Source: a virus
Lineage: Duplodnaviria; Caudoviricetes
DNA: 64,000 bases
Virus record (IMG/VR): IMGVR_UViG_3300021387_000141
Span: 1-64,000 of that record
Strand: one strand, 5' to 3'
This document shows positions 9,312 through 57,326 of the stretch, piece after piece; position 1 is the first letter of the stretch, and every line of letters begins with the position of its first letter. A program made the position numbers and the translations under genes. The notes under the pieces are model-generated. The model ran no database searches, was not told the DNA's origin, and worked only from the letters and a program-made list of their open reading frames with translations.

Positions 9312-10541
9312 TTACGGGATCTTCTCAATCTCGGATTTTAACCAGGAAGTATCTCTCTGGGTGTAGACAGATTCGGTAATATCTTTAATCCGATGTCCAA
9401 CGATATACTTGATCGCGTACTCATCCATTTGATATTTCTTCGCCATGGTGACAAAAGTGACCCGGCCGTCGTGCGGCTTATGATCCGGATTTAATCCGAG
9501 CTGCTCGATGAGTTTATTCAAATTTTCGAAGTATCGTATGTAGGTCATCTGATCCGCTTTCCGGCCCATGGTCGTCGGTACACTGATCAGATATTCCCGG
9601 TTTTGTGATACCCCTTCCTGATACCAACGTTCCACAATCGGAAAAATTCGGGAATGGATCGGGACAATACGGTTTTTACCGGCTTTTGTCTTCATTCCAC
9701 CGGTAATAAGACCTTCCTGTAAATCAATGTTTGATATTTTCAGGCTTTCCAGTTCTTTCGGACGCCATCCGGTATAACATTGAAACAGGATCACTTTCGC
9801 TAACGGGAACGAATTGATATTTTCCCACAAAATCTTTAATTCCTTATCGGTATACGGAATATGAGCCGTTCGTTCTTCTTCCAGTAATTGTGAATCTTTT
9901 TTCGGAACGGATGCTTCTTTCGCATAGTTACGATCCACGATTTCATACTCCAGCGCATAATCAAACATTTTATTGAACAGCGTTTTCATGTTTTTCCGTA
10001 TGACCGGCGTAGTGTGCTTTTCAACCCCTTTTGATATTACGGTGCCTTCTTCAAAGCATTGCTTAATATGCCGGGCCCGAATTTCGCGTACTTTTACTTT
10101 TTTCAGCATATCGCAATAATTCCAGGCGCCTTTCAGGTTTTTGGATGAACCATACGGGGCGTCTTTAAAGTAATTTTCACCCCAGCGCTGATAAAGTTCT
10201 TCCAGGGTGATGTCTTTATTGATATCAAATGGGTTTTTACCATATTCCATCAAAGCCTGATAAGCTTCATTATAGGTTTTAAAATATGCTTCCGGCTGCA
10301 ATAATTTGCAAATCGGTTTCCCTTCGTCGGTTTTTCCGATCGTGATCATAGCTCGGAAAGGTTTACGAAGGTTTTGGCCTTTTAATTCAGAAATCTGGCC
10401 GAATCCATTTGGAAGACGTTTCCGTCTGTTTGATATTCTTCTTTTGGAAACAGCTTCTTTCTGTAATGGATAACCGCAATGGGGACATGCCAGTGCTTTA
10501 TCACTGACCGGCAATTCACATTCTGGGCATTTTGTCAGCAT
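9312..10541 (-). CDS. int: Tyrosine recombinase (phage integrase) with N-terminal zinc ribbon
   Basis: CPEC..CPHC N-terminus; catalytic set R (TGWRPKE), K (KTKAG), HxxR (HDGR), H (VGH), Y (SVY). Confidence 0.92.
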   Translation of the reverse strand: MLTKCPECELPVSDKALACPHCGYPLQKEAVSKRRISNRRKRLPNGFGQISELKGQNLRKPFRAMITIGKTDEGKPICKLLQPEAYFKTYNEAYQALMEYGKNPFDINKDITLEELYQRWGENYFKDAPYGSSKNLKGAWNYCDMLKKVKVREIRARHIKQCFEEGTVISKGVEKHTTPVIRKNMKTLFNKMFDYALEYEIVDRNYAKEASVPKKDSQLLEEERTAHIPYTDKELKILWENINSFPLAKVILFQCYTGWRPKELESLKISNIDLQEGLITGGMKTKAGKNRIVPIHSRIFPIVERWYQEGVSQNREYLISVPTTMGRKADQMTYIRYFENLNKLIEQLGLNPDHKPHDGRVTFVTMAKKYQMDEYAIKYIVGHRIKDITESVYTQRDTSWLKSEIEKIP

Positions 10542-10555
10542 TGATATTTTCTTTC

Positions 10556-10897
10556 ATTAATTAATAGAGTAACACAGAGATTGGGTTTTATAAAAACGAT
10601 TTAGTGTTTGCTATATTCAGCTAATAACACATTTATGCTGTTTGCAAAAACCAGGCAGGGTCTTTGCGGCATGGTTTCAAGCAAATGCTTCAGATATCTG
10701 CTTATTTCGATAATATCTAATTTTTTAAAATCGAGCATATCAGCTTGCTCCTTTCTATATTCAATTTCTCATTATGCGTTATGGAACTTTTATGCCATGG
10801 CGGTTCAATGGCCGCCTATGCTCAATTTTTTGTGAAATCAAGATCCAACCTTGATCCACATGCAACATCAAATCTCTGTGTTACTGTATTAATTAAT
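10556..10897. repeat. 27-bp inverted repeat pair (1 mismatch) flanking a 288-bp segment upstream of int
   Basis: 10556-10582 attaattaatagagtaacacagagatt is the reverse complement of 10871-10897 aatctctgtgttactgtattaattaat except at one base. Confidence 0.9.
10601..10738 (-). CDS. 45-aa ORF inside the inverted-repeat segment (not in ORF track)
   Basis: MLDFKKLDIIEISRYLKHLLETMPQRPCLVFANSINVLLAEYSKH with strong RBS gaaaggag on the minus strand. Confidence 0.55.
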   Translation of the reverse strand: MLDFKKLDIIEISRYLKHLLETMPQRPCLVFANSINVLLAEYSKH

Positions 10898-11818: not shown

Positions 11819-12169
11819 ATGAAAAAGATTAATAAAATTTGTGTATTAATAGCAATAATCTTTGCTATTATAGCCGCTGCGGCGCTTGCCGCAGAATATT
11901 ATTTTTCGCGCAATGAAGTATTTGCGCAATCAAATACTGGTAGCTATTGCTACCGAAACGGCGAATGCCGTATCGCTGTCAAAGGTGATGAAAACGAAAT
12001 TTTCTTCGTTCTTGTAAATGGGGATGAAGAAATGATTAATGTAAAGTGGCATTTGGCCCCTATAGGCTTTAATGCTGATAGTCCTGAATGGGATGAATAC
12101 GAGTATATCTGGTGGAGTTCAAACCTGCCACCGGAATATGGGGATCGATACGTAATCCCCGAATTGTAA
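11819..12169 (+). CDS. Membrane-anchored/exported hypothetical protein (cassette ORF)
   Basis: RBS ggagg; signal-anchor ICVLIAIIFAIIAAAALAA. Confidence 0.7.
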   Translation: MKKINKICVLIAIIFAIIAAAALAAEYYFSRNEVFAQSNTGSYCYRNGECRIAVKGDENEIFFVLVNGDEEMINVKWHLAPIGFNADSPEWDEYEYIWWSSNLPPEYGDRYVIPEL

Positions 12170-13967: not shown

Positions 13968-14000
13968 GAGCTAGTTTACATTTTATAGAAAGGAGTAAAA

Positions 14001-14036
14001 ATGGACTGGCCTTTAGAGTTTGGAGAAGAGCTTTAG
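14001..14036 (+). CDS. 11-aa peptide MDWPLEFGEEL overlapping a 10-bp stem (14022-14031/14073-14082)
   Basis: Strong RBS gaaaggag; the only ORF in its cassette. Confidence 0.4.
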   Translation: MDWPLEFGEEL

Positions 14037-51974: not shown

Positions 51975-52260
51975 CTGTGCCCACTTTTGTGGCCAGAAAG
52001 AAGCCAATGCCCACTTTTTTTGAAAACTTGATGATTTTCAGCCTTGGCCAAAATGCAAAATGGCCAGAAAAAGTGGGCACGTGGCCAGTTTTTTTTAAAA
52101 AGTGGGCACGGATTTTTTAGCAATTTCCCGAGTAAAATCGGGCAAAAAAGGGCTTTCTGCCCACTTGCCCACTTTTTTTTCTTATTTAATGCGCAAAGTA
52201 AAAAAATTAAAATATATAATAAATAGAGAAAAAAACTGGCCATCTGGCCACAGCCCATTT
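51975..52260. repeat. Putative replication origin with interspersed repeats
   Basis: Six TGCCCACTT/AAGTGGGCA copies in both orientations and six TGGCCA palindromes, A/T tracts and an AT-rich segment (about 52199-52226) in non-coding DNA. Confidence 0.65.
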
Positions 52261-52332: not shown

Positions 52333-52629
52333 TTGCCCGGTTATTTTTACGATCCTGATTACGGAGCCCGTTTTATGGATCAGTTGGAAGAAGTGTATGA
52401 TCACCACGGAAACTGTATTTTAACAGAATGCTGCGGCGTCTATTGGATGTGGGATCCGTATCATGAAAACTATATTTGTCCGAAGTGCGGAAGAACGGTG
52501 TCACGCAGCTCATTTTTGAAAAACTACGTTCCGGCATACGGCCCGGAATGTTTCAGCTGTCGGACCAACTTTCCGCAGTGTGTTATTTGTCATAAGAACC
52601 ATCAGAAAGAGTTAGATGATAGGGAATAG
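52333..52629 (+). CDS. Zinc-finger protein (TTG start)
   Basis: RBS gaaaggagg; ECCG, CPKCG, CFSC..FPQCVIC. Confidence 0.7.
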   Translation: MPGYFYDPDYGARFMDQLEEVYDHHGNCILTECCGVYWMWDPYHENYICPKCGRTVSRSSFLKNYVPAYGPECFSCRTNFPQCVICHKNHQKELDDRE

Positions 52630-52722
52630 GTCATAGGGACTGGGGAATAGTTTTAATAAGATGACAGCGAAGCTGTCTTCCTATTTTTAACTAGCCCCTA
52701 ATCCCTAACCCCTAAAAAGCTC

Positions 52723-52748
52723 TCGCGAAATTTACATCCCCTCTTATA
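52723..52748 (+). promoter_or_regulatory. Phage promoter-like motif upstream of the nuclease/RNAP operon
   Basis: tcgc gaaattt aca tcccct cttata. Confidence 0.65.
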
Positions 52749-52830
52749 GAGAGAAGTAGATATTACATCGACTTTTCGGTTTTGTCTTACAAGACTTTTT
52801 GAGACCATGAACACATGGCCTCTTCTTTTT

Positions 52831-52997
52831 TAAGAACAGCGTTTGTCCGCTTTCCACTTTTCAGCCCACTTCCAATGTTTGGCTTAATCGTGCTAACGAC
52901 CTTTTTCATTTTTACTCCTTTCAAATAGATGAATCCTTCTAAATAATCAACATTTTCCGCTCCGGACGTAAGTGGAAGGCGGATGAGCGCTGTTCTT
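52831..52997 (+). ncRNA. Long stem-loop RNA 1 (28-bp helix, loop antisense to phage RBS/start regions)
   Basis: 52831-52858 pairs with 52970-52997 at all 28 positions (4 G.U). Confidence 0.7.
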
Positions 52998-53020
52998 ATT
53001 TTTTAACAGGAGGAGCTATA

Positions 53021-53311
53021 ATGCTCGAACGAAAGTTTCAATCCAAAGTTATTTCTGAATTGAAAGAGCTCTTTCCCGGCTGCGTTATTTTAAAGAATGA
53101 CGCGAACTATCTTCAGGGGATCCCTGATATTTTGATCCTCTATGAAGATCGCTGGGCTATGCTCGAAACAAAAAAATCTGCAAAAGAACATAAACAACCT
53201 AATCAGGAATATTACGTCGACAAGCTGAATCGCATGTCCTTTTCAAAATTTATTTATCCGGAGAACAAGGAGGAAGTTTTTTATGAACTTCAACGTGCAT
53301 TCAAATCTTGA
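53021..53311 (+). CDS. VRR-NUC family nuclease (Holliday junction resolvase-like)
   Basis: ERKFQSKV...GIPDILIL...MLETK PD-(D/E)xK pattern. Confidence 0.8.
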   Translation: MLERKFQSKVISELKELFPGCVILKNDANYLQGIPDILILYEDRWAMLETKKSAKEHKQPNQEYYVDKLNRMSFSKFIYPENKEEVFYELQRAFKS

Positions 53312-56987: not shown

Positions 56988-56992
56988 AATAG

Positions 56993-57070
56993 ACACACCC
57001 CGGGGGGATAGGCGAAAATCCCACCCCCTCCCCCAATCGCGGGGGTCTCCAAAAATTCTCCGGGGGAGTT
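56993..57070. other. Putative genome terminus (cos-like) region
   Basis: Non-coding G/C homopolymer tracts (ccccggggggg, cccaccccctccccc, cgcgggggtct, ccggggg) between the RNAP operon and the packaging genes. Confidence 0.4.
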
Positions 57071-57133
57071 TTTTAGGACGCGTTTTATATTTTAGCGTGG
57101 TGTTAATAACTTTAGTAAAAAATTTATATTTGT

Positions 57134-57206: not shown

Positions 57207-57326
57207 TTAGAAAGTACTTTCAGGGGCTCAAGGTTTCCATTTGTTTCCTTTCGTTCCTAACATTATTCGTCTTATGATATGTGCTTGGTTTTTTCGTTGC
57301 TTTGAGCCTCTGAAAGTACTTTCTAA
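57207..57326 (+). ncRNA. Long stem-loop RNA 2 (26-27-bp helix, loop antisense to phage RBS/start regions)
   Basis: 57207-57232 pairs with 57301-57326 at all positions (2 G.U). Confidence 0.65.

Follow-up and report, generated by a model that had tools for sequence, protein, structure and literature searches.

A conserved long-stalked hairpin in the leader of the VRR-Nuc operon of a ruminant-gut phage

Our analysis of a 64,000-nt stretch of Caudoviricetes phage DNA (the window; positions 1–64,000 of IMG/VR record IMGVR_UViG_3300021387_000141) reveals a long hairpin at positions 52831–52998 that is kept by evolution, its stem being maintained, as judged from aligned relatives, through compensatory changes. 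The hairpin lies in the leader of an operon encoding a VRR-Nuc protein, a Cas4-like exonuclease, and a YonO-like RNA polymerase, just upstream of the first Shine-Dalgarno (SD) sequence, and its loop is poorly conserved save for one pyrimidine-rich motif. The interpretation that we prefer, tentatively and at a little under an even chance, is that the element is a plus-strand leader RNA with a stalk of the type cut by ribonuclease III (RNase III) and with a loop that carries an anti-SD tract.

The stalk and its conservation

The helix comprises 29 uninterrupted base pairs, formed by positions 52831–52859 with positions 52970–52998 and including four G·U pairs on the plus strand, and closes a loop of 110 nt. 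A preliminary description of this DNA, made from the sequence alone, had given a perfect stem of 28 bp enclosing 111 nt; the helix and its four G·U pairs stand, and the register was off by one. The minimum free energy (MFE) of the hairpin is −61.7 kcal/mol, as compared to −32.3 ± 4.2 kcal/mol for shuffled sequences (z = −7.1), and none of 200 shuffles is as good. The stem is the longest unbroken hairpin stem of the 90-kb genome; the second longest is that of an element at 57207 (28 pairs), and all others have 17 pairs or fewer. Rfam covariance models gave nothing at gathering score across the whole window, and a permissive Rfam search of positions 52600–53100 gave three chance-level matches (E 0.09–0.7), none of them over the hairpin and none to C4.

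Homologous loci were found by ranking on the adjacent VRR-Nuc protein. Three of them (L224, L103, and L100) contain a homologous long hairpin at the same site, after a homologous short hairpin and T-run (hairpin 2, described below) and just 5′ of the SD sequence. The inner stem, GUCCGCYUUC paired with GGAAGGCGGAU, is shared, and the outer stem in the three loci differs from that in the window on both arms. In a six-sequence alignment, 26 consensus pairs are paired in 96.8% of cells, and both sides have changed in 11 of the 26. Sliding the partner by 1–3 columns reduces pairing to 42–56%. Not one of 500 shuffles matches the covariation score, the percent paired, or the counts of doubly changed pairs and of doubly changed cells; a fifth covariation measure, further pair types, was not above shuffles. 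The preliminary description had proposed searching related genomes for a covarying stem, and the three homologues and the 11 pairs with compensatory double changes are what that search yields. Two G·U pairs are kept across the window type, L224, and L103.

Variation within the phage population spares the stem. Specifically, near-identical variants differ by five loop substitutions, with all 58 stem bases unchanged, and in one variant the helix reaches 31 pairs. In contig 24 of sequencing run X7 (~95% identical), both arms are kept and 92 other bases replace 112 (joint 52858→52971).

A covariance model of the family (R1) matches only homologous leader sites and finds no further members among ~220 related loci. 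Loci L121 and L127 have unrelated long hairpins before the VRR-Nuc SD sequence (27 pairs; loops of 120–131 nt containing CCCUCCUC), loci L189 and L217 have hairpins that end at the same leader position, and locus L168 has a hairpin that ends 69 nt before the ATG. Unrelated hairpins thus occupy the same place in other lineages, and the architecture therefore recurs. As read from these sequences, the design appears to be a long stalk that closes a large loop, in which one anti-start-region tract is fixed, the whole being set between the leader terminator and the SD sequence of key phage operons.

Transcribed strand and loop motif

RNA from the plus strand is more stable than RNA from the minus strand, by 5.6–28 kcal/mol, in eight of 11 leader hairpins tested. 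The long-range G·U pairs of these eleven hairpins plus the I1 control total 41 on the plus strand versus 9 on the minus strand; a control 34-bp inverted repeat beside the integrase shows no G·U or strand bias. No promoter of either type was found on the minus strand in a scan near the hairpin and in a motif scan of the window. The G·U bias, the greater stability of the plus-strand RNA, and the position in a plus-strand 5′ untranslated region (UTR) therefore favor a plus-strand RNA. Together with the covariation, they bear out the plus-strand structured RNA of the preliminary description.

The loop contains a conserved 16-nt block, UUUUUCAUUUUUACUC, which is the best 16-mer in an alignment of four lineages, to which the loop-conservation statistics are confined (42 of 48 identities; mean 32.6 and maximum 37 in shuffles, with none of 500 reaching 42). 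The block runs on into CUCCUUUC, a second CUCCUUUC tract is present in L224 and L103, and the rest of the loop has diverged beyond alignment among lineages. The predicted probability that the motif is unpaired is 0.8–0.98 in the homologues, and the predicted MFE fold of the window hairpin places the ACUCCUUUC part within a 15-nt apical loop. The hairpin is thus predicted to present a C/U-rich seed in an unpaired loop, as do anti-SD small RNAs.

Read in reverse, the block gives a consensus SD-spacer-AUG-AAA sequence, and it consequently matches many gene starts. In particular, positions 52907–52922 are the exact complement of positions 13988–14003 (16 nt), and positions 52901–52913 are an exact complement at the starts of the genes at 11819 and 41816; these complementarities, noted in the preliminary description, are exact on recheck. 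That description had further matched the loop to one class of ribosome-binding site (RBS), and here the match is at background. For the antisense of 40 random real start regions, the mean of the ten best duplexes is −19.0 kcal/mol, identical to the value for the loop, and the number of start-region targets at or below −15 kcal/mol is 30 for the loop versus a mean of 23 and a maximum of 46 for the 40 antisense controls. The complementarity is real yet not target-specific; of the proposed anti-RBS loop, the conserved motif that is predicted to be unpaired stands, and the specificity for a target class fails the antisense control.

Leader architecture and genome setting

The features of the leader are as follows.

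52723–52757, plus strand: promoter-like motif specific to the phage, TCGCR-N7-CA-N4-CT-N4-T (20 exact copies in the window, of which this is the last)
52751–52783, plus strand: promoter-proximal hairpin 1 (GAGAAG / CTTTTC) with a T-rich run after it, identified from aligned motif copies and from a homologous hairpin in the related phage G001
52805–52830, plus strand: terminator-like hairpin 2 (CCATG-AACA-CATGG) and a pyrimidine/T run adjoining the 5′ arm of the stalk, identified by terminator scan
52831–52859, plus strand: 5′ arm of the stalk, 29 bp, identified by folding, genome hairpin scan, and covariation
52860–52969, plus strand: loop, 110 nt, delimited with the loop alignment
52902–52922, plus strand: conserved pyrimidine-rich motif UUUUUCAUUUUUACUCCUUUC, complement of a consensus SD-spacer-AUG region, identified by loop alignment and folding
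52970–52998, plus strand: 3′ arm of the stalk, identified by folding and covariation
52999–53023, plus strand: T6 run, SD sequence AGGAGGAG (53008–53015), and ATG of VRR-Nuc (53021), the first gene of the operon, read from the sequence
52787–52909, minus strand: open reading frame (ORF) of 40 codons, called by gene finders in the assemblies, not conserved, and judged not to be a gene

The promoter-like motif at 52723, which the preliminary description had placed upstream of the hairpin, is confirmed: it has 20 exact matches in the window (span 10973–52757), all of them on the plus strand, as compared to a chance expectation of 0.2. The copy at 52723 is the sole stretch of the intergenic region kept across ~80 related phages, always 5′ of VRR-Nuc. 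Nearly all copies are followed by a short hairpin, varied in sequence and preserved in pairing, and then by a T-run, an SD sequence, and a start codon. Across the copies from 10973 to 52757, we also observe that the stem of the adjoining hairpin overlaps the 3′ end of the motif, an arrangement that resembles a terminator set just past a promoter.

Hairpin 2, with its stem at 52805–52818 and a T-run after it, has a homologous version in G001, L224, L103, and L100. The distance from the promoter motif to the ATG is 297 nt in the window versus 83–124 nt in most relatives. The added length consists of hairpin 2 with its T-run and the 168-nt stalk-loop, which is placed exactly between that T-run and the SD sequence, with a gap of 9 nt between the 3′ end of the stalk and the SD sequence.

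A different arrangement is seen in the VRR-Nuc leaders of L109 (1400–1495), L125, and L112, which have no long stalk. There, a short hairpin pairs CCUCCU(UUC) with a decoy AGGAGG just 5′ of the true SD sequence, GAAAGGAG. The anti-SD strand of that hairpin also matches the true SD sequence over 8 nt, and the hairpin, by its sequence, resembles a translational switch with two states.

Another element built on this stalk-and-loop plan, at 57207–57326 (28 pairs), precedes the next operon (57352) and follows a terminator-like hairpin. It is kept in the sister phage G001 (positions 86–205), with one double compensatory change, six changes that preserve Watson-Crick or wobble pairing, and two broken pairs, and its loop tract, CAUUUGUUUCCUUUCGUUCCU / CATTTGTTTCCTTTCGTTCCT, is identical over 21 nt in G001. 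The minus-strand mini-ORF within it has six codons in one genome and three in the other. The preliminary description had pointed to this element as a second instance of the design, and its conservation in G001 upholds that view. Covariance model R1 gives no link between the elements at 52831 and 57207, which are analogous and not homologous. Separately, a conserved G/C-rich block (CCACCCCCTCCCCCAA ... TCTCCAAAAATTC.CCGGGGGA ... GTTTTATATTTTAG) lies 5′ of the 57207 hairpin in both sister phages (56990–57100 in the window and the ends of G001), and from its sequence it may be another, late type of promoter.

The genome is complete at 90,190 bp, with direct terminal repeats, and the window is its first 64 kb; other assemblies hold near-identical genomes of ~90.1 kb. 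The sequencing runs that contain the phage are recorded as animal gut metagenomes, sheep and bovine among them, and the source is a ruminant-gut phage. Among cultured phages, Faecalibacterium phage FP_oengus is the nearest by protein (61% identity), and a megablast search against cultured phages gave no match. Nearly all genes are on the plus strand. The hairpin occupies a 391-nt gap between a 107-aa zinc-ribbon ORF (end at 52629) and a three-gene operon: a 96-aa protein (start at 53021) with homologues that carry the VRR-Nuc annotation; a Cas4-family exonuclease of 187 aa (start at 53283; Pfam match, and neighboring homologues annotated as Cas4-family exonuclease); and a protein of 939 aa in which Pfam shows helix-turn-helix domains and, weakly, an RdRP/YonO-type signal.

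Three further repeat regions were observed. At 52619–52720, a terminator-like hairpin (52663–52677) 3′ of the zinc-ribbon ORF is bracketed by two arms, one G-rich (TAGGGA.. / GGGGAATAG) and one C-rich (CCCCTAATCCCTAACCCCTA); in run X7, a 91-nt stretch within this region is swapped for 55 other bases. At 52008–52251, just 5′ of the nuclease-operon promoter, copies of AAGTGGGC / GCCCACTT, some direct and some inverted, are clustered together with TGGCCA palindromes; similar clusters occupy the same place in many relatives (L104, L009, L028, L048, L054, and G001:85277–85551). The cluster resembles iterons or protein-binding sites and is perhaps a replication origin. At 10556–10897, a 34-bp imperfect inverted repeat surrounds 274 bp directly 5′ of a minus-strand tyrosine recombinase (9312–10541) with an N-terminal zinc ribbon. 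The segment within this repeat contains a minus-strand RBS and ATG with a 45-codon ORF. Possible roles for the repeat are those of an attP, a regulatory region, or an invertible switch, and it may enclose a true minus-strand gene 5′ of the integrase.

Possible functions and alternatives

Under our preferred interpretation, transcription would start from the promoter at 52723 and pass the two short terminator-like hairpins, and the leader RNA would then fold so that the 29-bp stalk closes the 110-nt loop, 9 nt short of the SD sequence. The most likely mechanism is that host RNase III, which is specific for double-stranded RNA, would cut the stalk. The cut would split the coding message from a structured leader containing the two terminator-like hairpins, altering its stability and its access to ribosomes, and would free the loop as a discrete RNA of ~110–150 nt, whose exposed anti-SD/anti-AUG tract could pair with ribosome-binding regions. 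The stalk has the length of an RNase III substrate (~20 bp or more of largely unbroken double-stranded RNA), with 29 pairs in the window and 26–35 long-range pairs in the homologues. In full leaders, the SD sequence is predicted to be mostly paired (unpaired probability 0.17–0.44), partly with an upstream pyrimidine run placed alongside it by the stalk.

A near-perfect duplex of 26–35 bp is a classic RNase III substrate, and RNase III processing hairpins are found in the lambda N leader, the T7 early intercistronic sites, SP82 early mRNA, and the pnp and rnc leaders. The phage element resembles these sites in having a near-perfect stem of more than 20 bp in the 5′ UTR or between cistrons of a phage polycistronic message, directly 5′ of an SD sequence, where processing would uncouple the leader. 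It differs from them in that the known sites are compact, with small or internal loops, whereas here the predicted stalk closes a loop of 72–131 nt with a conserved motif; in enclosing a large loop, it is like the stalks that flank pre-rRNA. The c4 antisense RNA of phages P1 and P7 (~77 nt) is matured by RNase P and uses a′/b′ loops against a2/b2 targets. Like c4, the phage element would be a small structured RNA in a phage operon leader, processed from the transcript, with a loop able to pair with a downstream ribosome-binding region; unlike c4, it has neither an RNase P-type maturation in its proposed scheme nor defined a′/b′ loops, and the phage leader has no Rfam C4 match.

Both halves of the proposed model, processing and anti-SD pairing, occur in bacteria. 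In Campylobacter jejuni, RNase III cuts an intramolecular duplex to yield mature CJnc190, which blocks a G-rich RBS (PMC8687705), and in Staphylococcus aureus, an anti-SD motif of icaR mRNA pairs with the SD sequence, blocking initiation and making an RNase III substrate (PMC3868564). The likeness to CJnc190 is an intramolecular duplex and a purine-rich RBS as pairing partner, with both cleavage and pairing only proposed for the phage element; in contrast, CJnc190 is chromosomal and has its own promoters and a cis-encoded antagonist, whereas the phage element is embedded in an operon leader and has no sequence similarity to it. Like icaR mRNA, which comes from a Firmicute, the phage leader carries a pyrimidine-rich anti-SD tract in the same mRNA. 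The icaR motif, however, is part of the 3′ UTR, from which it acts on the 5′ UTR of its own message, whereas the phage tract lies in a leader loop and its predicted pairing with its own SD sequence is only ~7 bp, including two G·U pairs. In SPbeta, a non-coding RNA that is not annotated likewise stands at the start of the late operon transcribed by YonO (PMC5467207). Processing hairpins and anti-SD regulatory RNAs are thus of a known kind; the present family and design are uncatalogued, with no Rfam match.

Several observations weigh against our preferred interpretation. A search of the phage proteins for an RNase III domain found none. The predicted unmasking of the SD sequence after a cut in the stalk is inconsistent: the unpaired probability rises from 0.33 to 0.77 in L100 and from 0.17 to 0.64 in L121, changes slightly in three others, and goes from 0.28 to 0.25 in the window. 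Covariation of the two arms would also be expected from an inverted repeat maintained at the DNA level, and the conserved loop motif is equally readable as a minus-strand ribosome site. G001, the closest whole-genome relative (Cas4 83% identical), has no stalk, its sequence is continuous across the site, and its leader has only a similar CU-rich motif, located elsewhere; most of ~200 distant relatives have short leaders (83–124 nt), also without a stalk. The stalk is therefore dispensable for the operon. VRR-Nuc identity to the window is 81% for L100, 73% for L103, and only 65% for G001; the leader-plus-nuclease module of G001 therefore derives from another lineage. As judged from these sequences, presence of the stalk follows the VRR-Nuc lineage, and vertical descent fits better than mobility.

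A possible but doubtful alternative is that the loop serves as a trans-acting anti-RBS small RNA that pairs with the SD-AUG regions of early cassette genes in a timed shut-off, the 57207 element serving another gene set. The exact complementarity to real gene starts, over 16 nt and over 13 nt, points this way, as do a motif that is conserved and predicted to be unpaired in four lineages lacking a conserved minus-strand ORF, and the 21-nt anti-RBS tract at 57207, which is kept in G001 while the stem changes. Precedents for the design are CJnc190, P1 c4 RNA, and the C-rich loops of Firmicute small RNAs. The tract, however, matches start regions only as well as antisense sequences of the genome's real start regions do in general, which shows it only to resemble a start region in reverse, the element has neither a promoter nor a terminator of its own, and G001 manages without the stalk. 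It is unlikely, on the other side, that the hairpin is a plain structural feature (a barrier to 5′–3′ exonucleases or a leftover terminator) with no regulation beyond RNA stability and with a loop motif kept by recent descent. The T6 run that adjoins the 3′ end of the stalk in the window and L224, the absence of the element from most relatives, and loop statistics drawn from four lineages only would fit such a feature; yet the T-run is lost in L103, L100, L121, and L127, the 16-nt block is kept while the remaining loop is unalignable, and analogous hairpins, also with CU-rich loops, are found at the site in unrelated sequence and once more ahead of the packaging operon. An intrinsic terminator as such was rejected on the same loss of the T-run and on the loop of 72–131 nt, which is atypical.

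We consider it quite unlikely that the inverted repeat acts at the DNA level, either as an invertible switch flipped by the tyrosine recombinase at 9312–10541 (Pfam Phage_integrase, 1.4e-18), which has its own 34-bp inverted repeat beside it, or as a small palindromic insertion resembling a miniature inverted-repeat transposable element (MITE). Inverted repeats (29-bp arms) and a site-specific recombinase, the two hallmarks of an inverton, are both present, and concerted evolution of the arms would mimic covariation. Furthermore, only five backward-facing pairs of RBS and ATG occur in 90 kb, and three of the five lie one each inside the three largest inverted repeats, a coincidence unlikely by chance, although the repeat at 10556–10897 may surround a true minus-strand gene. 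Clostridioides difficile has switches of this type, flgB and cwpV, which are inverted by RecV between promoter and first gene (arms of 21 bp for flgB). The likeness lies in imperfect inverted repeats around 100–200 bp between promoter and first gene in a genome with a tyrosine recombinase; the differences are that here one orientation is seen in all lineages, mismatches on the transcribed strand are G·U-biased, and the arms are 25–35 bp as compared to 21 bp. In particular, the motif has the same orientation in six independent lineages and in both copies of the 57207 element, no strand-changing joint was found in four metagenomic runs (assembled contigs only, which drop minority forms), and mismatches on the plus strand are far more often G·U than A·C. 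The inverton, prompted by the recombinase and the backward ribosome sites, was set aside on the single orientation and the G·U bias. An insertion is suggested by leaders ~175 nt shorter in most relatives and by T5–6 flanks on both sides in the window and L224, with G001 reading as an empty site; yet a T-run is expected after hairpin 2 in any case, and the second run is missing in L103 and L100. There is no second copy of the element in the genome, and its repeat pattern is unmatched in IMG/VR and in 185,579 species genomes (one per species). A unique recent insertion or MITE was dropped on the homologues in L224, L103, and L100 and the lack of extra copies, and the co-occurrence of the stalk with the VRR-Nuc lineage fits vertical descent.

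Very unlikely, in our assessment, is a minus-strand small gene or start site, in which the loop would hold a genuine RBS and ATG for a peptide, with the inverted repeat flanking or regulating it. The preliminary description had raised this alternative as a 26-aa ORF at 52909–52829; that frame is lost after residue 17, and the true ORF has 40 aa, runs from 52909 to 52787, and ends 44 nt past the 5′ arm, having left the conserved element for non-homologous sequence. In its favor are a strong SD sequence (AAAGGAG) with a 7-nt spacer and an ATG, a call in every assembly of the phage, two in-ORF substitutions among population variants, both synonymous, and a change from ATG to TTG in L121 and L127 that preserves a start codon. 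Nevertheless, the ORF has 40 codons in the window, 14 in L224, 3 in L103, and 1 in L100, and nothing is shared beyond M-K-K, the motif itself. Searching 5.8 billion proteins (lengths 22–70 residues) recovered only the peptide's own three-member cluster, from near-identical genomes. The promoter scans, moreover, found none of either kind on the minus strand, and in a minus-strand RNA the plus-strand G·U pairs become A·C mismatches. With neither ORF nor peptide conserved among the homologous loci, the minus-strand gene was rejected, as was a type I toxin-antitoxin system, the 40-aa product being hydrophilic, lysine-rich, without a hydrophobic stretch, and not conserved. Gene calls in this leader are unreliable elsewhere too: in addition to the 40-aa minus-strand ORF, gene finders report a plus-strand ORF of 59 aa that spans the homologous hairpin of L224 (L224:1121–1300).

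The plus-strand leader RNA with a processing stalk and an anti-SD loop can be extended to a broader proposal, and this extension we regard as unlikely. In this proposal, the element is a processing cassette from which RNase III would excise the loop, the tract would mimic the 3′ end of 16S rRNA extended over an early-gene spacer and start codon, and, together with the element before the packaging operon, it would constitute an RNA-only shut-off of early translation as the nuclease/polymerase and late operons start. Such a system would be the RNA counterpart of T4 RegB/RegA.

Hardly any regulatory RNAs have been mapped in uncultured gut phages, and this element adds a covariation-supported family that is absent from Rfam. 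It sits at a control point, in the leader of the operon that encodes the phage's own YonO-like RNA polymerase, and its design is found again ahead of the packaging operon and, with unrelated sequence, among other phages of this group. If it is merely a processing or stability element, it still helps annotation, where gene callers place a spurious 40-aa gene inside it. If it is an RNase III site that frees an RNA directed against ribosome sites, it would provide phages with a simple, portable means of timing translation.

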